Assembly: GCA_016711485.1 (NCBI GenBank)
Contig: JADJSX010000013.1
Location: 86,889 to 150,888 of the forward strand
Length of the DNA stretch: 64,000 nucleotides
Direction: 5' to 3'
DNA from: Leptospiraceae bacterium
GTDB taxonomy: Bacteria; Spirochaetota; Leptospiria; Leptospirales; Leptospiraceae
The notes beneath the pieces are model-generated. The model was given only the letters and a program-made list of their open reading frames with translations. It had not been told where the DNA came from and searched no databases. The stretch's first letter is position 1, and every line of letters begins with the position of its first letter. The translations under genes were made by a program, and so were the position numbers. This document shows, one piece after another, positions 28,804-63,720 of the stretch.

Positions 28804-31800
28804 TCATTTGATTTCTAACTCTTTTTTAAATTTCAAAATTCTTATTTCCTCGGGATCGAGTTTAATACAATCGTCTAAAATCACTTTGGCTCTTTCCATT
28901 CTTCCCAATCCTTTGTAAGTATCAATTAAATTCATAAGGTTGTCTAAATGCTCGGGGCGACGCATTCGAAATCTCTCGCCGAAATCAACCGCCCTTTCCA
29001 ATTTGCCAACCTGTCTTAGTGCATAAGAAACATCATACATATATTCAGATAAATGCGGATAATCGGAAATAACCTTTATACCATACTCAATTACATTTGG
29101 GAAATCTTTTTTTGCTTTGTATTCTTCTAGCTTTTCCAGATCAGCTTCGAGTTGGCTTGAATCCTTACTCCCTCCTTTGAAATGAATTTTAAGTAGAGAA
29201 AGATCATCAATTAATTTACCAGTATTTGAAATTTCTTCCTGAATTTTTTCTAAATCACCATCTGCTATTTTGATATGATTTAAAAATAAGTTTTCATCCT
29301 GATTAATAATCTCATATCCTTCTGAATCTTTTCCAATGCATATATCATCTCGTCCGTCAGAGCCAATTATAACAATATCATCCGAATGCAAAGAAAAAAC
29401 AGAAACGGAGATACTTCCCATTTGCCCCTGTGTCCCGAGCTTGGTATAATGTTTTGGATTTTCTATGAAACTTGCGAGTCCATCGCGATAGAGTGCAATA
29501 GGAGGATGCTCTGCATTCATATAGTACATCGTTCCTGTTTGCTCATCGACTAATCCAAACACAGCGGACATTAGCATCGATCCATCAAATCCTTCAAACG
29601 ATTTATGCATTTCAATAAACGCATTCTTAAGCCATCTCTCTGGATAAACAGTCTTTCCATAATCAGTAGCTTTTGTTCTTTGTATGATCGACTTAAAAAC
29701 AGTGCCTAACACCAATACTCCGCCGGCACCTTGAATCGACTTACCCATTGCATCCCCGTTTAAGAATACGGTATACTCTTTACCCTGCAATTCCATATTC
29801 TCAGCAATATTAATATCTCCGCCTAATTCGTATTCGTTTCTGCGGAAAATAAATGTTTTCTTTTGTTTAATAAAAAAATCAATCCCCACGTTTTTACTAA
29901 ATGCATTATTCTGTCCTAGAGGCTCAATGAGAAGTGTATTCAAAAAATAATCCCCGTCTTGTTGTTCTTTGAGTCCACGGACTTCGACGAGTGCTTGATT
30001 TAGATCGCGAGTTCTCTCTTCTACTTTTTCTTCTAGGTTAGCATATAACAATGAGTTTTCTACACTCACCGCAATCTGAGAAGATAAGACTTTTAGTATT
30101 TCTACTCTGTCTGGTGTAAAAGCATCTGTCGTAAGGTTATTTTCCAAGTAAACCACTCCCACTAAGTTTCCCTGGTTGATGATGGGATAACAGAGAATAG
30201 ACTTTGGTTGTCTTTTTACTACGTAAGAATCATTCGTAAACGCCCCTTTCTTCATCGCGTCATTTAACAGAATAATTCCCTTGGTTCGAATTACATAATT
30301 TACAATCGCGGAGGATAATTGTGATTTGTCCTCCAAAGGCTTTGCTTCTAATACCGTAATTGTGTCCGTATTTGCATTTCCTTCTGCTTCAATAATCCAG
30401 TTCTGATTTTCTTTTAGAATAAAAAATCCTCTTTCTGCTCCTGCGTTTTCAAATAGAATTTTCATCATCTTTTTTAGAAGTTTTCCTAAATGGATTTCAC
30501 CGGATATTGCTTGGGATGCTTTTACGACTGTGTTCAAATCTAGTAGAGTTCCAGTTGCGCTTGCATTTGAATTAGAGCTAACACTAACATCTTTCGCAAA
30601 TTCCTGTTTCGCATGACGCTTCAACTGTGGATATTTTTCTTCAAGCTGTTTTACCTTTGGCTCGCAGCCCCATTTTTTATAGGCGTAGTGGGCTTCTATT
30701 AAAAATATATTCGCAATTTGATCTTCTTCTTTTTCTAGCCACATCTTCGCTAAAAATTCGTTCGCCAGTGCTTCTTCTAAAAGGTACTCGTGTTCTTTCG
30801 CTAATGCGATCGCTTTTTTAAGTTCTTGTCTCGCTTTTTCAAAATCCCCCATTGAGTAAATCAAAAGCCCGTTTACGATATGGTATTTATGCCCGTAGTT
30901 CGCAGGACAATTCTCTGCCCAGACTTTCATACGTTCTTGGTTCTTTTGGATTTGTTCCAGATACTTAGTCTTATCCTCTTCGGATGAATCAGGTAATTCC
31001 AGAAGTGAGAGGCAAGAAAGAGAATCCCAGAAATTATGCTCAGCAACAAACATCATTCCAAAACATCCGCCTTCGTGTGGCTCCCCTTCTCTCGCATAAC
31101 GGTATGCTTCTAAAGGAGAACCAAAGAGGTAATTCAATGTTAGCTTATTCACATAATAATTAAAGAGTGTAGTTGAGTTTTTCGTCTCTTTCCAGATAGA
31201 GACAATTTCCTTTTCATTGAAAATATCTCCATTCATTTCCATTAGACTTTTTCCTAATCCTTGCAAAATTATGGACATTTCATAGTTGAGGCAAAACATA
31301 TGCTTTGGATCTTCTTGTTTTAATTTAGCAAAGTTAGAAAGAAATTTTGAAAAACTCGAACTTACTTCCGAAAGATTTTTCCGCATAAGCAAAGATTGAA
31401 AATTAAAATGGTTCGTGGAATAACCAGCATTCAAGAAATCACCTGAATCCATACCAGCTTGTATACTTTCTAAAAAGTAAGGCAGATCCAATCTGGCATG
31501 TTCTCTCCAATGGTTATTCATACAGGCAAAAAAGAAAAAACCTGCGCACTTGAGATTTTTTGCATTTAACTTTTCGATTATTTTGATTCCAAGCTTACCT
31601 AGTTTGTTTCCAAGTTCATAGTTCCCGATCCCTGAACCCATAATTATACCGTACAATATAAATGCCAGACCTGATTCCTTAGCAAGGCTATTATCCTCTA
31701 AAGTTAGGTTTACCATTTTTAAAACGGTCAATGGAAAAAGACTGGGTAATGTTATATAGGCAGGAACGATACTCACAGCTAGGATTCGCGTGATTGCCAG

Positions 31801-34575
31801 TTTTTCTGGCGAAGTCATTTGACGAAGATCAATAAGTTCTTCGATTTGCCTTTCTCCTTGTAACTGAAATGCTTTCATAACTTCAGGTGTCGGGTCATGG
31901 ACTTCTGGAAAATCTATCCCTAAAATAGCAAGGGCTTTAAGTCCTATATCCAAAGCTTCTCTAAGTTTATTTTGACCAACGTAAAGAGGAATTTGCAGTT
32001 CATACACAAGCGCTTTATCTAATATTGTATTAGTGTTTTCTAATATGATTGTAAAAAATTGATCTGCTTCTGCATGATTACCGTTTAAAGATTCAAGTTT
32101 GGCTCTATTGAGATAGATACTTAGAGCCTTTTGGTAAGAAGTTTCCCAAATGTCTTTAGGAAAAAATTGCATAGCAATTCGATAACAATCCAAGGCTACA
32201 TCATAAGCCGAAGAGGCTAATGCCTTTTCACCCGCAAGAACGTTTAAATCGATAAGTTGATTTTTTTCCTGCTCGCTCAATAGCATTGTACATTGATTCA
32301 ATTGTCCCACAATCGTAAAAATCAAATCCTCAATATCTTCTTCTTTGGTTATTTTTAAATAAGTCGATCCAATCGCATAATGATTCTTAGCCCTTTCTTC
32401 TTCCGAAATTAAAGAATAAGTAGCCTCTCGAATTTTATCATGAACAAACTTTACAGTATTTCCTCCGATAAGTAAAAAACCTTCATTGGAAATTTGCTCT
32501 AATTCAGTCTTCAACTCTCCGGAAGATTTACCAGAGATTTGCGAAAGCAGTTCTGTTTCGAATGTATCACCGATACAAGCGGCTAATTTTAATATTTCCA
32601 TTTGGTTAGGAGTAAGTTCCTGAACTTTCTCTACCATGAGGTCTATCACGTTCTCGGAAATTTTAGCCTCTCGGATTTTAGAAATATCCCATTTCCACTG
32701 GACAGAGGGTCTAGACAGGACAGTGGGTTGCAACCCACTGTCTAAATATACCAACCCATCTTTATAAAACGAGGTAAATAACTCATTTACAAAAAAAGGA
32801 TTTCCGTTTGTCTTCTCAAATAGAATCGTCGCGAGTTCCTTTGCATTTGACTCTTCACAATTCAAAGTATCTTTTACTAAATGGGTAATGTCCGAAATTC
32901 CGATTGGGGTTAGAATTATTTCTTTGTATACAAATCCTGACTTTTTTAATTCCGCAAGCATTAACGAAAATGGATCTGTAGGCAACACCTCATTATCCCG
33001 AAACGATAACATAAGATACAGATATTTCATTTCTGGATTCGATAGAATTGTTTGAATTAGTTTGATACTAGGTGTATCCGCCCATTGCATGTCATCCAAG
33101 AATATCGCAATAGGATGTTCCTTCGTGCAAAATGCTTGAATGAAATTCTGAAATACTAAATTGAATCTATTCTGTGATTCCGTGGAACCTAGTTCTGCGG
33201 GTTGTTGTTGTTTGCCTATCAAGGTTTCTAGTTCGGGTATCACGTCTATGATGACCTGTCCATTTGAACCAACAGCCTGTAAAAGCCTCTCTTTCCACTG
33301 CGAAATAGACTCAGATTTCTCTGTTAATATCTGCTGGATTAAACTCTGAAATGTTTGGGTGATCGCCCCATACGGAATGGCTCGTTTGAACTGATCGTAT
33401 TTTCCTGAACCAAAATATCCTTTGTATTCCGTAATCGGTTTATTGACCTCGTTGATTAATGCCGATTTGCCGATGCCGGAATGTCCAGATATTAATTGTA
33501 AAGACGCACGGCTGTGCGTCTTTACATCGCCGTTGGAGGACGTGCCGCCGCGCGTCCCTACGATATCCTTGAAGGATTCAATGATTTGGTTAATTTCATT
33601 TGTTCGCCCATATAATTTTTCGGGTATTTGGAATTTGCCCGAATGATCGTGGGTGCCTATTTTGAAATCGTCGGATGGATTAATCAAAGTTATCCCCTCT
33701 CCTCTTAGGAGAGGGGATAATTCTTTAGATTGGACAACTCCAGCAGGGTCAGGGGAGAGGTTATTCAAACACCATTCCAAATCATATAGAAGACCTGCAA
33801 TGCTCTGATACCTATCTTCCGGATTCTTTTGTAATAATTTCATTATTATATCGGACAGCGTAGAGACGCACGGCTGTGCGTCTCTACTATGCGGTGGAAT
33901 TGGCATTTTGGCGATATGGGCATGGACTAATTCCATCGGGTCTGTATTGGTAAAGGGGAGTTCTCCCGTAAGAAGTTGATAGAAGGTAACGCCTAACGAG
34001 TAGTAGTCCGTGCGATAGTCCACTGTTCGGTTCATTCTACCTGTTTGTTCCGGAGATATATAGGCTAACGTTCCTTCCAGATTGTTCTTCATATTGATCT
34101 CTGGACTTTCTTTCGTTAAAAAAGAAACAGAACCAAAGTCAATTAAATTCAGAGTCTTGCTATTAGAGTTATAAACGATGTTATGCGGTTTCAAATCCTT
34201 ATGAATCATATTGTGCTTTTGGATTTCTGCCAAAGCCTTTGTAGCCGCTATCGCAATTTCTACAAACTCTTCTATGCCGAAATTTTTCTTTTCATCCAAT
34301 AATGCTGCAAGAGAAGATGCACCTATATCCTCAAAAATAATGACTAAGCTATTTTTATAAGATTCTACTCCTAAAACTTTTACAGAATGTGCTAAAGAAA
34401 ATTTCTTAATAATATCATATTCTTTTCGAAACGCTTCTAATTCATGATTAGTAGGATACTCTTTATTTAGGTATTTCAAAATAACGGGTGTATCCCCTTT
34501 CTTGGCACGGTATACTATGCTTTTTTCTCCAACATGAAGTTCAGCTTTTATTTCATAGCCTGTTAGTGTTATCAT
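28804..34575 (-). CDS. giant Ser/Thr protein kinase / P-loop NTPase (STAND-like) / TPR / GAF / PP2C (SpoIIE) protein (1923 aa)
   Basis: Hanks-kinase motifs (HKDLKPHNIV, DFGSV, SPEQ), P-loop GHSGIGKSAL, long TPR-like helical region, a GAF domain, and a PP2C/SpoIIE C-terminus with a final TPR-like tail. Confidence 0.85.
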   Translation of the reverse strand: MITLTGYEIKAELHVGEKSIVYRAKKGDTPVILKYLNKEYPTNHELEAFRKEYDIIKKFSLAHSVKVLGVESYKNSLVIIFEDIGASSLAALLDEKKNFGIEEFVEIAIAATKALAEIQKHNMIHKDLKPHNIVYNSNSKTLNLIDFGSVSFLTKESPEINMKNNLEGTLAYISPEQTGRMNRTVDYRTDYYSLGVTFYQLLTGELPFTNTDPMELVHAHIAKMPIPPHSRDAQPCVSTLSDIIMKLLQKNPEDRYQSIAGLLYDLEWCLNNLSPDPAGVVQSKELSPLLRGEGITLINPSDDFKIGTHDHSGKFQIPEKLYGRTNEINQIIESFKDIVGTRGGTSSNGDVKTHSRASLQLISGHSGIGKSALINEVNKPITEYKGYFGSGKYDQFKRAIPYGAITQTFQSLIQQILTEKSESISQWKERLLQAVGSNGQVIIDVIPELETLIGKQQQPAELGSTESQNRFNLVFQNFIQAFCTKEHPIAIFLDDMQWADTPSIKLIQTILSNPEMKYLYLMLSFRDNEVLPTDPFSLMLAELKKSGFVYKEIILTPIGISDITHLVKDTLNCEESNAKELATILFEKTNGNPFFVNELFTSFYKDGLVYLDSGLQPTVLSRPSVQWKWDISKIREAKISENVIDLMVEKVQELTPNQMEILKLAACIGDTFETELLSQISGKSSGELKTELEQISNEGFLLIGGNTVKFVHDKIREATYSLISEEERAKNHYAIGSTYLKITKEEDIEDLIFTIVGQLNQCTMLLSEQEKNQLIDLNVLAGEKALASSAYDVALDCYRIAMQFFPKDIWETSYQKALSIYLNRAKLESLNGNHAEADQFFTIILENTNTILDKALVYELQIPLYVGQNKLREALDIGLKALAILGIDFPEVHDPTPEVMKAFQLQGERQIEELIDLRQMTSPEKLAITRILAVSIVPAYITLPSLFPLTVLKMVNLTLEDNSLAKESGLAFILYGIIMGSGIGNYELGNKLGKLGIKIIEKLNAKNLKCAGFFFFACMNNHWREHARLDLPYFLESIQAGMDSGDFLNAGYSTNHFNFQSLLMRKNLSEVSSSFSKFLSNFAKLKQEDPKHMFCLNYEMSIILQGLGKSLMEMNGDIFNEKEIVSIWKETKNSTTLFNYYVNKLTLNYLFGSPLEAYRYAREGEPHEGGCFGMMFVAEHNFWDSLSCLSLLELPDSSEEDKTKYLEQIQKNQERMKVWAENCPANYGHKYHIVNGLLIYSMGDFEKARQELKKAIALAKEHEYLLEEALANEFLAKMWLEKEEDQIANIFLIEAHYAYKKWGCEPKVKQLEEKYPQLKRHAKQEFAKDVSVSSNSNASATGTLLDLNTVVKASQAISGEIHLGKLLKKMMKILFENAGAERGFFILKENQNWIIEAEGNANTDTITVLEAKPLEDKSQLSSAIVNYVIRTKGIILLNDAMKKGAFTNDSYVVKRQPKSILCYPIINQGNLVGVVYLENNLTTDAFTPDRVEILKVLSSQIAVSVENSLLYANLEEKVEERTRDLNQALVEVRGLKEQQDGDYFLNTLLIEPLGQNNAFSKNVGIDFFIKQKKTFIFRRNEYELGGDINIAENMELQGKEYTVFLNGDAMGKSIQGAGGVLVLGTVFKSIIQRTKATDYGKTVYPERWLKNAFIEMHKSFEGFDGSMLMSAVFGLVDEQTGTMYYMNAEHPPIALYRDGLASFIENPKHYTKLGTQGQMGSISVSVFSLHSDDIVIIGSDGRDDICIGKDSEGYEIINQDENLFLNHIKIADGDLEKIQEEISNTGKLIDDLSLLKIHFKGGSKDSSQLEADLEKLEEYKAKKDFPNVIEYGIKVISDYPHLSEYMYDVSYALRQVGKLERAVDFGERFRMRRPEHLDNLMNLIDTYKGLGRMERAKVILDDCIKLDPEEIRILKFKKELEIK
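33507..33563. repeat. 54-bp in-frame GC-rich insertion inside the kinase gene; it contains a REP-like motif and abuts a palindrome
   Basis: cgtagggacgcgcggcggcacgtcc (minus-strand sense, 33538-33562) is near-identical to the REP motif cgtagggacgcgcggcgcacgtcc flanking the RAYT at 60360 and 60987. The insertion encodes DIVGTRGGTSSNGDVKTH, which the paralogue 37028..40855 lacks. An adjacent perfect palindrome aaagacgcacggctgtgcgtcttt lies at 33500-33523. Confidence 0.55.
33861..33886. repeat. second GC-rich perfect palindrome (tagagacgcacggctgtgcgtctcta) inside the kinase coding region
   Basis: It shares the same core (gacgcacggctgtgcgtc) as the palindrome at 33500-33523. It lies in-frame and encodes HSRDAQPCVST. 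Confidence 0.45.
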
Positions 34576-45965: not shown

Positions 45966-46404
45966 AGGTGAGGATAAGAACCTTTTGCCGTAGCCACTCG
46001 ATGGCAGTGCCGGAGGCTATTAGGTAGTAGCTGTCGTTTTGACAGAGTACATAGTCTAGGTTTTTGTTGGTTTGGCAACAGACAGTGCGCGGAAATTCGG
46101 AAAGAAAATGTACGAGGGATTGATCTTCTTCAAAAATAAAAACATTGGGTTGTTCACTCTTATCAAAAAGAATATAGGTTTCTCTTTGCTGGATAAATTC
46201 ATCCAACCATTCCCATGCATCTTGCTGACGGACACTATAACGAGGATGAATATTATGCCATATAGGAAAGTAACCATTTCCTTCCGTGAATTTTTCTCGG
46301 AATTTTTTTCGAAATAGGTTGCTTTCTTCTAGATTCAATTCTTGAATTCTAGATTTTACAATGGTAATCGTTTCATATATATTTTCTTTTATAAAATCAG
46401 TCAT
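45913..46404 (-). CDS. hypothetical protein (163 aa)
   Basis: ORF only; no recognisable domain. Its C-terminal 16 codons are shared with the two other repeat copies. Confidence 0.5.
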   Translation of the reverse strand: MTDFIKENIYETITIVKSRIQELNLEESNLFRKKFREKFTEGNGYFPIWHNIHPRYSVRQQDAWEWLDEFIQQRETYILFDKSEQPNVFIFEEDQSLVHFLSEFPRTVCCQTNKNLDYVLCQNDSYYLIASGTAIEWLRQKVLILTSQGWQDADKRSKPEDFE

Positions 46405-47747: not shown

Positions 47748-49511
47748 ATGGAAATTTTCGAAGAGTTGTTTTCACAAAATCCAATCGGAATTTTAATCTG
47801 GTCGAAGACAGGGCAAATTAAATATATGAATCAATCTTTACTTGGTATTTTGAAATATAAAATTCCTCCTTCCCATTTACAAGATTGTGCCAGTAAAGAA
47901 GAAAACCTAAATGAATCGAATCTTTTAGGAATCCTACATAATACCAACAAAAAATTCAAAACGTATACGAAAGAATTTTTTACCGAAAACAAAGAATCCG
48001 TACGGGTAGATATAATGACCAGCCTTGTGAATTTCAAAGAGGATACTTATTATTACTCACAGATTCGAAAGCATAAATCCAATATTAGTCCAACTAAGAC
48101 AGAAACCTTAAAAAAACAAAATGAAGTCTTACTCAAATTAACCAAAAGTGAAACCATAGACAGCGGAGATTTGGAAGCATCGGTAAAAGAAATAACTGAA
48201 GCCGCAACAGAAGCTCTAGGATGCGAAAGATCAAGTGTCTGGTTTTATACCGCGGATAATCAATCTATACTCTCAATGGATTTATTTCAGAAAACGCAAA
48301 CTCTTCATTCCAGTGGAGCTGAACTTTTTGCAAAAGATTTTCCTGCCTATTTTAAATATCTTTCAGAGGAAAGAGTTCTCGGTGCGGATAACGCACATAC
48401 AGATCCAAGCACTCATGAATTTAGCAAAATTTATTTAACTCCACTGAACATCAATTCGATGTTAGACGCTCCTATCCGTCTTCATGGGAAGATGGTTGGA
48501 GTCATTTGCAATGAAACCGTTGGCGAATTTAGAAACTGGACACAAGAGGAATTAAATTTTTCCGCTTCTCTTGCAGATTTAATTTCGAGAGCTATCGAAG
48601 CACAGATTCGTAAAAAAGCAGAAGATGAAATTAAACAAATAAATGAAAACCTCGAATTAAAAGTAGAAGAACAAACAAAAGAAATCAGAGAATCACTAAA
48701 TCAAATTACTAAGTTAAAAGAATTTCAAGATGGAGATTATTTTTTAACATCTCTAGTATTAAATCCACTCATTGGAAATAAAAATTCTTCTAATATAATT
48801 CTTACAGATTTTATTGTGAAACAAAAAAAACAATTTCATTTTAGAAAATCGTCCGGACAGATTGGTGGAGATTTTTGCATAACAGAAACTCTTAGTTTTC
48901 AGAATGCCGAAAATCGTTATGTATTTTTCCTAAATGCAGACGCAATGGGAAAATCCATGCAAGGAGCAAGCGGAGCGATTGTTATCGGAACAGCCATTTT
49001 AAATATTCTCTGGCAGGCTAAGAACAAAGGCATGTCTAACTTATCCGCAGAAGAATGGCTTCAATTAACAGTTTTAGAATTGAATAATATATTTCTAACT
49101 TTTGATGGTTCTATGATTATATCAGCATTTTTTGGATTGATAGGTGAGACTAATCGTGATTTACTTTTCAGTAATTTTGAGCATCCACAGGCAGTTCTCT
49201 TTAGAGATGGGAAGGCTAGCTTTTTAGAGTTAAACAATCAACATGTCAAGTTAGGACTCCTATCCGTAGACACAGTTCCGATTGAACGAAAATTTTTACA
49301 GCCTGATGATATCCTGATTATAGGAAGTGACGGAAAAGATGATATCGAAATCAGCTCCAATAAGGAAGGTAGATCTATCAATGAGGATGAAACTGCGATT
49401 TTAGAGCTCATTGAAAAAAGTGGAGGAAACCTTAAAAAACTAGAAATTCTTCTAGAAGAAAAAGGAACTCTCATCGATGATTTATCCCTTATGAGCATAA
49501 GTATTTCCTAA
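47748..49511 (+). CDS. GAF-domain / PP2C (SpoIIE) serine phosphatase regulator (RsbU-like), 587 aa
   Basis: GAF region (GCERSSVWFYTADNQSILSMD...HGKMVGVICNE), a coiled linker, and a SpoIIE-like C-terminus (EFQDGDYFLTSLVLNPL...GGDFC...FLNADAMGKSMQGASGAIVIGTA...IGSDGKDD). Confidence 0.8.
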   Translation: MEIFEELFSQNPIGILIWSKTGQIKYMNQSLLGILKYKIPPSHLQDCASKEENLNESNLLGILHNTNKKFKTYTKEFFTENKESVRVDIMTSLVNFKEDTYYYSQIRKHKSNISPTKTETLKKQNEVLLKLTKSETIDSGDLEASVKEITEAATEALGCERSSVWFYTADNQSILSMDLFQKTQTLHSSGAELFAKDFPAYFKYLSEERVLGADNAHTDPSTHEFSKIYLTPLNINSMLDAPIRLHGKMVGVICNETVGEFRNWTQEELNFSASLADLISRAIEAQIRKKAEDEIKQINENLELKVEEQTKEIRESLNQITKLKEFQDGDYFLTSLVLNPLIGNKNSSNIILTDFIVKQKKQFHFRKSSGQIGGDFCITETLSFQNAENRYVFFLNADAMGKSMQGASGAIVIGTAILNILWQAKNKGMSNLSAEEWLQLTVLELNNIFLTFDGSMIISAFFGLIGETNRDLLFSNFEHPQAVLFRDGKASFLELNNQHVKLGLLSVDTVPIERKFLQPDDILIIGSDGKDDIEISSNKEGRSINEDETAILELIEKSGGNLKKLEILLEEKGTLIDDLSLMSISIS

Positions 49512-55169: not shown

Positions 55170-55389
55170 ACTTCCTTGCGAATTTTGGGGTATTTATCAT
55201 ATGAACTTATTTAGTCATTTCTATTTTAATTACCCTTCCATTTCCACTCTAGAAAATTTCTTTTTATTTTTAGCAAGCTCTCTATTTTTATTTTTTATTC
55301 CAATACAGGAAAAACCTATCTGCGGCTAAAGGCAAATATTTTCTATAAACAGGGAGACTTCCAAAAAGCTGCAGAGGTTTATTCTAAAT

Positions 55390-55565
55390 TATTAACTGAC
55401 ATTACGCAAAATTGATAATTTACGGAGCCAAAGATGATTTTGAGAATATTAGAGAATGCTAATGAATTAATAAATTCAATAGCCTGCGGCAGCAAGCCCA
55501 CCGCTAGGTGCAAACCTCAAGCGGAAGCTGGACTCACCTTGCGTAAGGTGAGTTATTAAATGTAT
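55390..55565 (+). other. small-ORF/hairpin element copy B; candidate 41-codon ORF at 55434..55559
   Basis: Upstream box ttattaactgacattacgcaaaattgataattt, RBS ggag, and ORF MILRILENANELINSIACGSKPTARCKPQAEAGLTLRKVSY*. The 3' hairpin ctcacctt-gcgt-aaggtgag is followed by ttattaaat. Confidence 0.35.
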
Positions 55566-59700: not shown

Positions 59701-59768
59701 TATTGTATTTTATACCGGTGATATATTCCTATGCAAATCATATGGAAAAAGTATTTCAAAGGAAATAA
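56721..59768 (+). CDS. RND-family efflux transporter permease (AcrB-like, 1015 aa)
   Basis: Typical RND N-terminus (FFLERPILVNIIVLLVFGYSL...), two large periplasmic loops and 12 TM segments. No membrane-fusion-protein gene lies adjacent. Confidence 0.85.
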   Translation: MKTLVKFFLERPILVNIIVLLVFGYSLTSISKMKKEAFPELALGRFVITTIYPGASAGDIELNVTLPIEETLREVEGIQELKSYSRESVSIVDITANENYEKQELQRMYMDIDSALSTVKNLPSGLDNKPILEEISSSDLPVVEITFSGEYKDLIQFLPKVEDEIAGINGIASVTRIGLGDEEVHILVDPLEAKKNYVDLLMIANAIKKRNIHGSGGTLQSFTDEKKIVSYEKFNTPEEVLNTNILMSQDGFGVKLKNVATIEYKEKDTKLIVRNNGKRGASLLIKKQSTADILKTIDSVSEYLDKLQLPAGVSFKKLNDGSKLTRNRIQLVMGNAIVGFILVVISLFIVFDIKTALWTGFGIPFTLLTCLVILYSKGLTLNMFVLGGFILVIGMLVDDAIVIAETINRNLENGLPPIEAASSAVAEVWKPVIASSATTMVAFSPLVSLGGLPGKFIWMIPLVVILCLTISLFESFFLLPVHLSEGKHKPIEKKQFILKLEEMYRGLLQLTFRNKKKFLLSIFVLLVSTFLIGKFLLKKEPFPQEGAEGFIVSLVLPKGSSLERTETVVKKIEEELLKLPEIELDGFSARVGTNSENNATEIGSQANAGVIFVYLKPYQNRKRTAEEIRESIKLKLDEVIKKEVDNFTTKIIRFGPPLGRPFEIRVVSNDSEIRKSKMEEIKKYLSTIGGIYDIDDDELEGKGELNLVINHDLLSRSGLTVEDLMNSFHIAYEGLVVTDIVTLDKTLEFRLKLNEKARSDINFIYKLPLLNKLGQEINLKQILTVSESKSLEEMKHIDRKRFGAVFGNLDRGKITPEEVMLKVKEKFPSGETYKIDYSGEPIENQKIFKNLGVAAIIALLSVYLIIVFIFNSFFKPFIVILAIPFGIIGVIYSIFLHGMALSMFVGIALIGLMGVIVNNSILMVYTTSEGSEGGLTDEIIINGAVQRLRPIMLTTITTILGLLPTAYGIGGHDPVLSPMSLALSYGLLFGTIVVLYFIPVIYSYANHMEKVFQRK

Positions 59769-59846
59769 CCTTAGGACCATCCGGCATGCCAGATCATTTG
59801 AATTGTTGAGTAAAAACATGTGGGGAGCTTATCAAATCCATCCGGA

Positions 59847-60018
59847 CTAAAACTTCCCCTCTCTCTCCAGAATTATCTTCAACAATTCCGTATCATTCTT
59901 CTCCTCGGCAATCTTCTTGGCTTGGTCATTGTATTTTTTGGCGTTAGACTTATCGCCTAACTTTAGGTAGATCTCGGCGAATGTGTTGAGATAATTTGGG
60001 TATGCGTTATTCCTTTTT
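59847..60018 (-). pseudogene. C-terminal TPR-like gene fragment truncated at its 5' end by the REP cluster
   Basis: The minus-strand frame ...SNRQKRNNAYPNYLNTFAEIYLKLGDKSNAKKYNDQAKKIAEEKNDTELLKIILEREGKF* has no in-frame ATG. The frame opens at a stop codon inside the REP tandem repeat. Confidence 0.45.
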
Positions 60019-60020
60019 TG

Positions 60021-60130
60021 TCTATTAGATTAGAGGACGTCTGCCGGTTCTATTAGAGGACGTCCGCCGGTTCTATTAGAGGACGTCCGCCGGTTCTATT
60101 AGAGGACGTCCGCCGGGCGTCCCTACGGGA
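60021..60130. repeat. tandem array (~4 x 23 bp, tctattagaggacgtccgccggt) of GC-rich REP-like palindromic units abutting the RAYT stop codon
   Basis: Read directly. The unit contains the palindrome GGACGTCC. The array ends in cgtccctacggg, which provides the TAG stop of the transposase. Confidence 0.75.
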
Positions 60131-60761
60131 TTAATCGTTCTAAATCGTTCTCCCAGTTTTTGGGATTTTTTTGAATGTATGTCTTAATATAATAAAATTC
60201 TTTTTCATCTCGTATGATATGGTCATGGTAGCGAGATTGCCAAACAGTTAATCCAGAAGTACGTTGAATTTCATTAATGCGTTTTGTAACAACAGATTTG
60301 AATCCTGCAAAAAAAGACGATATTGATTTCGGCAAATAATTTTTATTATTTCCGCCCCGTAGGGACGCGCGGCGCACGTCCTGTATACGATAAATCACGT
60401 CCTCTATACATTTAACGTTCTGTTTTTCGTTATCGTTTGGAATTTCGTTATCGTTTGGAATTTCAATTATAGGACGTCCGCCGGACGTCCCAACGTGGGT
60501 AATAATGGCGTGAATGTGATTGGGCATAATGATATATTCCGCACAGGATAATTCCTTTCGAATTTCAAAGGATCTTAACCATTCTTCTTCGACTATTTTG
60601 CCGAGATCATTTAAAACCATTTTCGAATCAGAAATTTTACCAAATAAACGTTCTCTGTTTTTCGTAACGACTGTAACAAAATAATACCCTGCGCTCGAGT
60701 AATCAAAACCTTGCAATCTGGGCGATTTTCTATTAAAAAATTTTTGTCTATATAGTGTCAT
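60123..60761 (-). CDS. REP-associated tyrosine transposase (RAYT; IS200/IS605-like Y1 HUH transposase), 212 aa
   Basis: HUH motif IIMPNHIHAII and catalytic-Tyr motif QSRYHDHIIRDE, with a YYFVTVVTKNRERLF N-terminus. The region between the motifs is expanded by REP-like GC-rich segments (encoding VGTSGGRPI and RIQDVRRASLRGG) and an 18-bp tandem duplication encoding IPNDNE twice. Confidence 0.8.
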   Translation of the reverse strand: MTLYRQKFFNRKSPRLQGFDYSSAGYYFVTVVTKNRERLFGKISDSKMVLNDLGKIVEEEWLRSFEIRKELSCAEYIIMPNHIHAIITHVGTSGGRPIIEIPNDNEIPNDNEKQNVKCIEDVIYRIQDVRRASLRGGNNKNYLPKSISSFFAGFKSVVTKRINEIQRTSGLTVWQSRYHDHIIRDEKEFYYIKTYIQKNPKNWENDLERLIP

Positions 60762-60927
60762 TTTTGCAATTTATAAAATAGCTATACATTTGTATACATT
60801 TTTAACATATCCAGAACAGCTGTATTATTTCGATAAAGGGAAAAAATTAGTTAGAAATTATATTTTATTTAAGAGGCGTAAATTATATCGGGGATACGTA
60901 TTTTTTTTAAGAAAATTTTTAGGACGT

Positions 60928-61020
60928 GCAAATATTTTTAGGACGTCCGCCGGACGTCCCTACGGGAATTCAATAAATTTTTCAATATCCACGTAGGGAC
61001 GCGCGGCGCACGTCCTATAT
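60928..61020. repeat. REP/BIME-like GC-rich palindrome cluster upstream of the RAYT
   Basis: taggacgtccgccggacgtcccta is a perfect palindrome. The inverted pair cgtccctacg ... cgtagggacg lies 26 bp apart, and gtagggacgcgcggcgcacgtcc is shared with 60358-60382 and with the kinase-gene insertion. Confidence 0.7.
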
Positions 61021-61274
61021 AGGATAAATCACGTCCTAAAAACGATAAATCACGTCTAAAAATAATAAATCACGCAATCTATACGATACAAAAAAAACAA
61101 ATCGTCTAAACAACAAGATCAATCGAATTTTTAAAAATCGGGAGATGTTCGTATTTTGTCATAAAAATCTTTCCGCCTGACGGCGGATCAACTAACAAAT
61201 TCGAATTCCTTCTTTCGTGTCAAACAATATCGAACATGTGAACATCTTCATTGAAAGCGAACAAACGTTTTGGA

Positions 61275-61318
61275 CTACTGCATAAAAACGTGTCCACTTT
61301 TTATGCAGTAGTCCATTA
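61275..61318. other. strong stem-loop: 17-bp perfect inverted repeat GGACTACTGCATAAAAA / TTTTTATGCAGTAGTCC with a 9-nt loop
   Basis: Read directly. It lies ~200 bp downstream of the minus-strand gene 61513..62067. Confidence 0.6.
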
Positions 61319-61512
61319 TTGGTTATCCATATTATGCAATACTTTTTTTTGAGTCTTTTCCAATTGAGATCATTGGGTATAATTTTAAGTTCCGTCAATG
61401 TCTGCGGGTTCCACGATCGAGAGGTTCATTTTACAGTATTTCTTTTGTGACATTTACAAATTAAGGATCGATTTTTGAGAATCGACCCTGTCGGCTATCG
61501 TTGAAAAAATCT

Positions 61513-63440: not shown

Positions 63441-63544
63441 TTTTTAACCTCTTAATCACTGACTATAGTATAGATTTACCCTTAGTGATTTTACCAAAAT
63501 ACAACTTTGAAGAAATTTTGTCATTTTTTATTTCAATAGCTAAT

Positions 63545-63720
63545 TATTAACTGACGTTACGCAAAAAAGGAAAATTATGAAGTTTGAAGATAAATTAAGA
63601 ATATTAGAAAATGCTAATGAATTAATAAATTCAATAGCCCGCGGCAGCGAGCCCACCGCTAGGTGCAAACCTCCCGTGGACGCAGGACTCACCTTGCGTA
63701 AGGTGAATTATTAACTTACG
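63545..63720 (+). other. small-ORF/hairpin element copy C; candidate 45-codon ORF at 63577..63714
   Basis: Upstream box ttattaactgacgttacgcaaaa, RBS aaggaaaattATG, and ORF MKFEDKLRILENANELINSIARGSEPTARCKPPVDAGLTLRKVNY*. It carries the 3' hairpin ctcaccttgcgtaaggtga. Only the GC-rich core differs from copy B. Confidence 0.35.

Follow-up and report, generated by a model that had tools for sequence, protein, structure and literature searches.

The locus described here lies on contig JADJSX010000013.1 of an uncultured Leptospiraceae bacterium (GenBank assembly GCA_016711485.1), within a stretch of 64,000 nucleotides (positions 86,889 to 150,888) that is referred to below as the window. It holds one gene for a tyrosine transposase associated with repetitive extragenic palindromes (REPs), a RAYT or TnpA_REP, with REPs on both sides of the gene and further REP-derived segments inside its open reading frame (ORF). 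The locus is very probably a REPtron, that is, a single HUH/Y1 transposase gene of subclass 2.4 (RAYT group 4) together with its cognate REPs. The features of the locus are as follows.

60029..60116, no strand assigned: 23-bp x 3.8 tandem array (Tandem Repeats Finder, 98% matches)
60103..60130, minus strand: 3' flanking REP, A-like, GTAG + GGACGCC/CGG/CGGACGTCC
60123..60761, minus strand: RAYT / TnpA_REP gene, ORF of 212 aa with an ATG start
60355..60403, plus strand: intragenic REP, B type, plus one repeat of its 3' arm; GTAG foot on the plus strand; encodes EDVIYRIQDVRRASLRG (aa 120-136)
60425..60464, minus strand: 18-bp x 2.2 tandem duplication (Tandem Repeats Finder, 100% matches)
60471..60498, minus strand: intragenic REP, A type, in frame, encodes THVGTSGGRP (aa 88-97)
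60940..60967, minus strand: upstream REP, A type, GTAG + GGACGTCC/GGC/GGACGTCC
60989..61017, plus strand: upstream REP, B type, GTAG + GGACGCGC/GGC/GCACGTCC, inverted relative to 60940-60967
61009..61074, plus strand: 21-bp x 3.2 tandem array (Tandem Repeats Finder)

The ORF at 60123..60761 had been assigned in an initial annotation to a REP-associated Y1 (HUH) transposase, and this identity was borne out. The HUH motif is intact (HIH, aa 82-84) and is followed by the WQ motif (W174-Q175), the stretch SRYHDH (aa 176-181) and the stretch TYIQKNP (aa 194-200), which contains the catalytic-tyrosine motif Y195-IQK-N199-P200. The NCBIfam hidden Markov model (HMM) REP_Tyr_transpos (NF047646) matched the protein in two separate stretches with E=4e-18 (65.7 bits). 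A large protein database yielded 815 homologs, the best of them 48-53% identical and several named RayT at the source; among the best 120 of the 815, lengths were 170-268 aa. Across 21 aligned sequences, H82, H84, W174, Y195 and N199 were invariant, while Q175, R184 and P200 were nearly so.

The profile built from this alignment matched the structure of E. coli TnpA_REP (PDB 4ER8), pairing PNHIH with PEHMH and WQSRYHDHIIRDE...TYIQKNP with WQPRFWEHAIRNT...DYIYINP. H82/H84 were thereby aligned to H59/H61 of 4ER8 and Y195/N199 to Y115/N119, and it is Y115, H59/H61 and N119 that make up the active site of 4ER8 (PMC3479197). Both the HUH and the tyrosine residues are thus present on alignment to a canonical TnpA_REP, and the inserts fall in the beta3:alphaC loop. 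The catalytic tyrosine had initially been placed in SRYHDHIIRDE. This was not upheld, as the tyrosine position of SRYHDH is occupied by F or Y across the 21-sequence alignment. Since Y195 is aligned to Y115 of 4ER8 and is invariant among the homologs, it is predicted to be the catalytic tyrosine. The SRYHDH stretch, which aligns with the WQPRFWEH region of E. coli TnpA_REP, is instead the putative GTAG-recognition region. The equivalents of W94/Q95/R104 recognise the GTAG foot according to Quentin, Siguier, Chandler & Fichant 2018 (PMC6006769), and these GTAG-contact equivalents (W174, Q175 and R184) are conserved here.

The AlphaFold2 model gave a pTM of 0.70 and a core with pLDDT >90, with low-confidence segments at aa 112-140 (pLDDT <50) and aa 91-110 (56-58). 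When the PDB was searched with Foldseek, the best 30 matches were all IS200/IS605-type or REP transposases, including ISDra2, IS608, IS200 and 4ER8, with a probability of 1.00. The protein ends 12 aa past the NP motif, and the C termini of its homologs are likewise short and are unconserved in the 21-sequence alignment. The RAYT core has a host-like GC content (32.5%, against ~34% for the window), so the gene is deduced not to be a recent arrival from a GC-rich donor.

REPs around and inside the RAYT gene

Each REP consists of a 5' GTAG foot and an 8-bp GC-rich hairpin. The hairpins are ~80% GC, and because the window is only ~34% GC they are conspicuous around the gene. Two types were distinguished: type A, GTAG-GGACGTCC-GGC-GGACGTCC, has a perfect stem, and type B, GTAG-GGACGCGC-GGC-GCACGTCC, has an imperfect one. 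Within the window, GGACGTCCGCCGG was found 12 times with up to 2 mismatches (0.11 expected) and GGACGTCC was found 7 times (0.21 expected). REPs flanking the gene, as first annotated, were recovered at 60103-60130, 60940-60967 and 60989-61017.

On the 3' side, the RAYT stop codon TAG (60125-60123, minus strand) is formed by the last three letters of the flanking REP's GTAG foot, the sequence reading ATC CCG TAG-GGACGCC. A 23-bp array had been proposed to supply this stop. The array is real, although it spans 60029-60116 rather than 60021-60130, and the stop does come from a REP; it lies, however, in the GTAG foot of the full REP and not in the 23-bp unit proper. The unit comprises the REP loop and distal arm (AGGACGTCCGCCGG) and a 9-nt spacer, TTCTATTAG, and the last unit continues into the full REP at 60103-60130.

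On the upstream side, the inverted pair first noted at 60951/60987 was confirmed at 60939-60969 / 60987-61017, with arms 84% complementary. The pair (60935-61022) folds as a single long hairpin in single-stranded DNA (z = -7.7) and is a REPIN-like arrangement. Adjoining it is the 21-bp array, which was absent from the initial annotation and whose unit consists of the 3' (distal) arm of the upstream type B REP (CACGTCCT) and an AT-rich spacer. In both the 23-bp and the 21-bp arrays, the repeated portion is the side of the hairpin opposite the foot.

The 23-bp array was also found to differ between contigs. Conspecific contig L002 (GCA_020051655.1) carries exactly one extra 23-bp unit relative to the window, with an identical RAYT ORF, and the copy number of this array is therefore naturally polymorphic. 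The identical RAYT protein is encoded on metagenome contigs L002 and L003, and a third contig, L004, covers the first 55 codons only. The parts of the ORF covered by these three contigs are 100% identical to the window, while the adjacent non-coding DNA contains single-nucleotide polymorphisms.

Inside the coding region, REP-derived segments had been placed at 60355-60382 and 60473-60492. Both were found, with the limits 60355-60403 and 60471-60498. The type A copy at 60471-60498 is 86% identical to the reference copy at 60103-60130 and near-identical to that at 60940-60967. The type B segment shares 94% identity over 49 nt with an upstream segment, 60989-61037. Together the two copies form a 144-nt inverted pair, in frame and with the feet outward, whose coding strand folds back as a long hairpin in single-stranded DNA (z = -4.7). 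Apart from this pair and the upstream pair (z = -7.7), the 64-kb window has no dimers. Between the two intragenic copies lies the tandem duplication, noted before at 60425-60460 and now delimited at 60425-60464. It encodes EIPNDNEIPNDNEK (aa 100-113), with IPNDNE present twice.

The insert occupies a variable stretch at about aa 88-145, in the segment joining the HUH strand (beta3) to helix alphaC, and is predicted from the structural model to be a disordered peripheral surface loop. Being in frame and placed in such a loop, it is likely to be tolerated rather than inactivating. The same stretch ranges from ~12 to ~95 aa among the homologs of the 21-sequence alignment. The distance from the HUH motif to the tyrosine had been estimated at ~96 aa, called unusually long and taken as a hint of inactivity. 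This argument fell away on comparison with the family. The true spacing from the second histidine to the tyrosine is 111 aa, and in 96 homologs it runs from 75 to 168 aa with a median of 91; since the value is within the family range, it is no argument for inactivity.

A peptide encoded by the palindrome GTAGAGACGCACGGNCGTGCGTCTCTAC, VETHGRASL, is very frequent in the variable stretch of the homologs. Among the best 120 of the 815 homologs, ETHG was present in 59 and RASL in 67. A full-text literature search for VETHGRASL gave no matches. GTAG-footed GC-rich hairpins were found within the ORF in four of the five homolog genes whose DNA was examined, in hosts of 30-44% GC. In the gene for the closest homolog (P0001, contig L013), the internal and 3' flanking REPs do not differ, the ORF ends CCG-TAG-REP with the GTAG foot giving the stop, and tandem arm-plus-spacer units again run up to a full REP. 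Two other homologs, P0024 and P0045, have almost no insert in the variable stretch.

Related palindromes were found ~27 kb from the RAYT gene. A gene at 28804..34575 (minus strand), encoding a 1923-aa Ser/Thr kinase-ATPase(AAA)-TPR-GAF-PP2C protein, carries three in-frame REP palindromes.

33499-33524: related double-foot palindrome, in frame in the kinase gene
33537..33564, minus strand: solo REP, GTAG + GGACGCGC/GGCG/GCACGTCC, in frame in the kinase gene
33859..33888, no strand assigned: double-foot REP palindrome, GTAGAGACGCAC-GGCT-GTGCGTCTCTAC, in frame in the kinase gene; fold z = -6.4

The palindrome at 33859-33888 is the one that encodes VETHGRASL in many RAYT homologs. Alignment with 12 homologs of the kinase indicated two different outcomes. 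The first REP site (33499-33564) corresponds to a net insertion of 14 aa (VGTRGGTSSNGDVK) immediately ahead of the P-loop. At the palindrome at aa 230-240 the homologs have native residues and the length changes by ~1 residue, as if sequence had been replaced there rather than inserted.

A scan of genome contigs with GGACGTSCGCCGSRCGTCCCTACG gave one match, a double-foot REP located between genes of an Anaerolineae metagenome-assembled genome (MAG; 67% GC), with no adjacent RAYT. A slightly wider pattern gave 5 matches in metagenome contigs, all unrelated short contigs of 54-67% GC; neither collection includes the source genome. An identical hairpin, GGACGTCCGCCGGACGTCC, forms a double-foot REP (GTAG...CTAC) in L001 (positions 269-292; GC-rich Anaerolineae) and in the unrelated metagenome contigs L008-L012. 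From this identity it was deduced that the REP sequence is common to very distant hosts of this RAYT subclass.

Class of the transposase and alternative explanations

TnpA_REP subclass 2.4 of Quentin et al. 2018 corresponds to RAYT group 4 of Bertels et al. 2017 (PMC5581495). In the former paper (PMC6006769), the subclass is characterized by the motifs NH[IFV]H / WQ / YIxNNP, a median length of 194 aa, a beta3:alphaC insertion variable in length and sequence with short repeats within it, a long and variable HuH-Y distance (median 88 aa), an 8-aa insertion at the end of helix alphaB, and REPs of two kinds, canonical long and "double foot" (GT[AG]G...C[TC]AC). In-frame REPs between HuH and Y are described there as the unique feature of the subclass and as tolerated.

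Measured against this published description, the window RAYT shares the NHIH, WQ and Y-I-x-x-N-P motifs and the lack of a C-terminal tail domain. It likewise has the hypervariable beta3:alphaC insert with short repeats, the in-frame REPs between HuH and Y, the long HuH-to-Y distance and the low REP copy number. Both kinds of REP are represented, the canonical GTAG foot with an 8-bp stem at the locus and the double-foot form GTAGAGACGCAC..GTGCGTCTCTAC at 33859-33888. The low REP density in the window also fits the 16-mers flanking group 4 genes, which are only modestly repeated at ~14 per replicon (PMC5581495).

Some differences were noted. The stem base is published with three G-C pairs, whereas there are two here (GGA...TCC). 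The described members are mainly from Cyanobacteria and Bacteroidetes with scattered representatives in other phyla, whereas the present host is an uncultured member of the Leptospiraceae (Spirochaetota). Two features of the locus, the stop codon formed by a GTAG foot and the half-REP-plus-spacer arrays that flank the gene (one with variable copy number), are not mentioned in the parts of Quentin et al. 2018 (PMC6006769) that were consulted. The placement in subclass 2.4 is a probable one, based on motifs, insert and in-frame REPs. An architecture in which a RAYT carries in-frame REPs is already published, and the Leptospiraceae host extends a known class.

A structurally characterized counterpart is E. 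coli TnpA_REP (RayT/YafM, PDB 4ER8, subclass 2.2). It shares the HUH/Y1 fold, the HUH motif, the catalytic tyrosine and the asparagine of the Y---NP helix, the WQ..R region contacting the GTAG foot, and REPs made of a GTAG foot and an imperfect GC-rich hairpin that flank the gene in inverted orientation. It differs in that identity to the window RAYT is ~15% over the fold alignment, its HUH-to-Tyr spacing is 54 aa without a beta3:alphaC insert, and its active site is completed by a C-terminal tail (E161) that is absent from the window RAYT. Moreover, the REPs of E. coli number in the hundreds and are all extragenic, and its transposase gene contains none.

A second comparison is with the in-frame REPs described by Di Nocera et al. 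2013 (PMC3733652) and the Rickettsia palindromic elements, which are likewise GC-rich GTAG-tagged palindromes, single or in dimers, that add 10-50 aa to conserved proteins. Here both the RAYT itself and the Ser/Thr kinase-ATPase gene carry such palindromes. The genes in that study (PMC3733652) were mainly DNA-repair and replication genes of other phyla, and insertion into a transposase gene is not described there; the latter was described by Quentin et al. 2018 (PMC6006769).

If it works as E. coli TnpA_REP and IS608 do, the RAYT would bind single-stranded REP hairpins, with the 5' GTAG foot read as a guide by the WQ...R region, and would cleave and rejoin DNA through Y195, the metal being held by H82/H84/N199. 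REPs close to and in the gene probably result from preferential action near the site of synthesis together with the tolerance of the loop. The reiteration of arm plus spacer in 23-, 21- and 18-bp units is most likely due to replication slippage at the hairpins, a process that may still be ongoing in the population.

Five observations weigh against the assignment as a REPtron of this class. Firstly, the window RAYT scores below the curated HMM cut-offs, with 65.7 bits against 80 for the NCBIfam model and 20.3 against 23 bits for Pfam Y1_Tnp (PF01797). Such a cut-off is an operational criterion and not a biological one, and each match is in two stretches because a 57-aa insert splits the protein. 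Secondly, the foot of the intragenic type A REP has decayed from GTAG to GTTG. Thirdly, REP density is low: outside the locus, the 64 kb contain one solo copy of the locus REP plus two related double-foot palindromes. Fourthly, the motif YIQKNP has K where the published subclass 2.4 consensus YIxNNP (PMC6006769) has N, the consensus of the 21-sequence alignment being YIxxNP. Lastly, matches in a promoter and terminator scan of the locus, including the promoter-like ones upstream of the gene, were not above chance; one plausible promoter-like site for the RAYT lies at 60910-60882 on the minus strand.

The first three of these observations would also be expected if the gene were a dead relic in which REP insertions and duplications had inactivated the RAYT, the frame remaining open since GC-rich palindromes seldom hold stops. 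In favor of this explanation are the HMM matches, sub-threshold and broken into two stretches, the 57 aa of REP- or repeat-derived sequence separating the motifs, the degenerate foot of one internal REP, the small number of REP copies in the window, and the setting of the locus amid gene remnants. It is nevertheless considered unlikely. All catalytic and GTAG-contact residues are intact, and both the insert (144 nt) and the duplication (18 bp) have lengths divisible by three. Inserts as long or longer are the norm in the 96 homologs and are published as tolerated (PMC6006769). In the structural model, the insert forms a disordered loop at the periphery, next to a confidently folded core, and the covered ORF is identical in three other samples (in one, over the first 55 codons) while nearby non-coding DNA varies.

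A different proposal assigns a function to the intragenic REPs, for instance, autoregulation through binding or cutting of the RAYT's own gene or mRNA, or a role as a protected master copy that seeds REPs. In most homologs REPs recur at this loop, and their AT-rich hosts would have to maintain them actively. The recurrence could be read in this way, but a permissive loop, combined with an enzyme close to its own gene, explains it equally well. The 94% identity over 49 nt between internal and external copies and the long hairpin formed by the internal pair on the coding strand (z = -4.7) also favor such a function. Since P0024 and P0045 are nearly without an insert, however, the insert appears dispensable, and in-frame REPs occur in unrelated genes as well. 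This proposal was judged improbable.

Still less likely is an autonomous insertion sequence (IS) of the IS200/IS605 type with subterminal hairpins, inserted in a TPR gene, in place of a domesticated REPtron. The fold and chemistry are those of IS200/IS605 TnpA (IS608, ISDra2), which gave the top Foldseek matches and whose genes are flanked by hairpins with a 5' guide tetranucleotide. In line with such an element, hairpins lie on both sides of the gene, gene fragments abut it, its homologs reside in variable or defence islands of unrelated genomes, and subclass 2.4 has a patchy taxonomic distribution suggestive of horizontal gene transfer (PMC6006769; PMC5581495). Against these features stands the tyrosine motif, which is the class 2 Y---NP and not the class 1 Y---Q of IS200/IS605 enzymes. 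Those enzymes are ~150 aa without an insert and belong to multicopy identical elements, often with tnpB, whereas one copy was found in 64 kb with no large adjacent ORF of the tnpB kind. The same hairpin also occurs solo, without a RAYT gene, inside the kinase gene 27 kb away. Furthermore, the GTAG foot of the flanking hairpins is of the REP type, these hairpins are arranged as inverted dimers and in tandem arrays instead of defined left and right IS ends, and the missing 5' part of the TPR gene was not recovered beyond the element. An autonomous IS is accordingly regarded as very doubtful.

Beyond the REPtron assignment, a more speculative suggestion may be made, which we consider a long shot. 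The disordered loop of the RAYT could be an actively remodelled, self-targeted landing pad, rewriting driven by the RAYT or by slippage could not only insert into host coding sequence but also overwrite it, and the intragenic copies could feed back on RAYT expression. The footprints of such rewriting would be the half-REP arrays (one polymorphic), the 49-nt near-identity of internal and external copies, and the kinase palindrome that takes the place of native codons with nearly unchanged length.

The locus extends domesticated transposases carrying their own in-frame target repeats to an uncultured AT-rich member of the Leptospiraceae, which has little weight beyond annotation. It is a usable example because REPs of ~80% GC contrast with a 34% GC genome and because array copy number varies among population contigs, and it could serve as a model for the growth of REP clusters and for the reasons why REPs build up in a permissive loop. 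The analysis also corrects two tempting misreadings, the choice of the wrong tyrosine as catalytic and the reading of long motif spacing as a sign of inactivity.

Gene remnants and genomic context

Two gene remnants lie next to the 23-bp array.

59767..59865, minus strand: pseudogene remnant of 33 codons with an in-frame stop (FTQQFK*SGMPDGPK...), abutting the TPR fragment
59847..60017, minus strand: TPR-like C-terminal fragment, startless, 56 codons + stop, opening after a TAA inside the 23-bp array

The TPR-like frame had been taken as a gene in which the transposase and its REPs had landed or into which they had expanded. That the frame is startless and opens at a stop inside the array was confirmed. 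The landing or expansion is weakly supported, given that the sole relative is only 57 aa long and that a second remnant is adjacent. The fragment scores below the threshold of Pfam TPR_8 (19.8 against 25.7 bits). Its only relative among 5.8 billion proteins is P0121 (IPL26_19010), a 57-aa ORF from a Leptospiraceae MAG with 90% identity over 50 aa. The similarity to P0121 spans 59850-59999, starting at residue 8 (position 59999), and ends ~30 nt short of the array. Pfam alignments suggest that the start of P0121 falls midway through a TPR repeat. When the missing 5' part was looked for beyond the RAYT gene (60762-61512, three frames), nothing TPR-like was found.

The second remnant (59767-59865) derives from a convergent gene that, in contig L006, comes directly after an AcrB-like gene and overlaps the AcrB stop. 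AcrB is 92% identical in that contig (SRR14932498). The match was 79% over 53 nt by blastn (E=1e-6) and 52% over 33 aa by tblastn (E=5e-5), and the rest of the L006-type convergent gene is missing from the window locus. The fragment of the convergent gene in L006 had no Pfam match, and L006, which has a different convergent gene at this place, stops 335 nt past AcrB. In L007, where AcrB is 63% identical, AcrB is followed by other genes, and neither a RAYT nor a REP is present. The best named relatives of the neighbouring RND efflux pump (AcrB-like) gene are in Leptospiraceae MAGs, at 61-63% identity.

Because the TPR fragment adjoins the remnant of a second, different gene, the locus is read as a rearrangement scar. 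The interval from AcrB to the next gene is, on comparison of these contigs, probably a decayed and rearranged intergenic scar made of gene debris and the REPtron. A simple insertion of the RAYT/REP unit into the TPR gene as the cause of gene decay is only weakly indicated. A blastn search of the locus against a plasmid collection gave zero matches.

The genomic setting of the RAYT homologs was also recorded. In a small sample, four of the five homologs whose context was examined are co-oriented inside defence loci (L013/P0001, L014-L015/P0087, L016/P0004 and L017/P0009). Two are in type I restriction-modification operons (hsdM/S ... RAYT ... hsdR), one lies between Cas6 and Cas7, and the fourth adjoins an AAA_15/AAA_21 ATPase pair amid toxin-antitoxin genes. 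The window RAYT is not in a defence context, and a sample of five loci cannot separate enrichment from the usual accumulation of mobile genes in islands.

A long AT-rich perfect hairpin, GGACTACTGCATAAAAA...TTTTTATGCAGTAGTCC, is located at 61278-61318 in non-coding DNA between the REP cluster and a 184-aa gene and is unrelated to the REPs. No family was found in the whole window by Rfam at the gathering threshold. Two conserved intergenic elements of ~170 nt, at 55387-55560 and 63540-63715 (plus strand), are 84% identical and share the core AATAGCCYGCGGCAGCRAGCCCACCGCTAGGTGCAAACCTC...GGACTCACCTTGCGTAAGGTGA. Each copy lies right upstream of an ATG and is without an Rfam match at the gathering threshold; the element could be an undescribed leader or riboswitch-like RNA. 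Finally, GC skew changes from negative to positive at ~46-48 kb, where gene orientation flips from minus to plus (the last minus-strand ORF ends at 46404 and the first plus-strand ORF starts at 47748), and this switch could mark a replication origin or reflect mere gene-strand bias.

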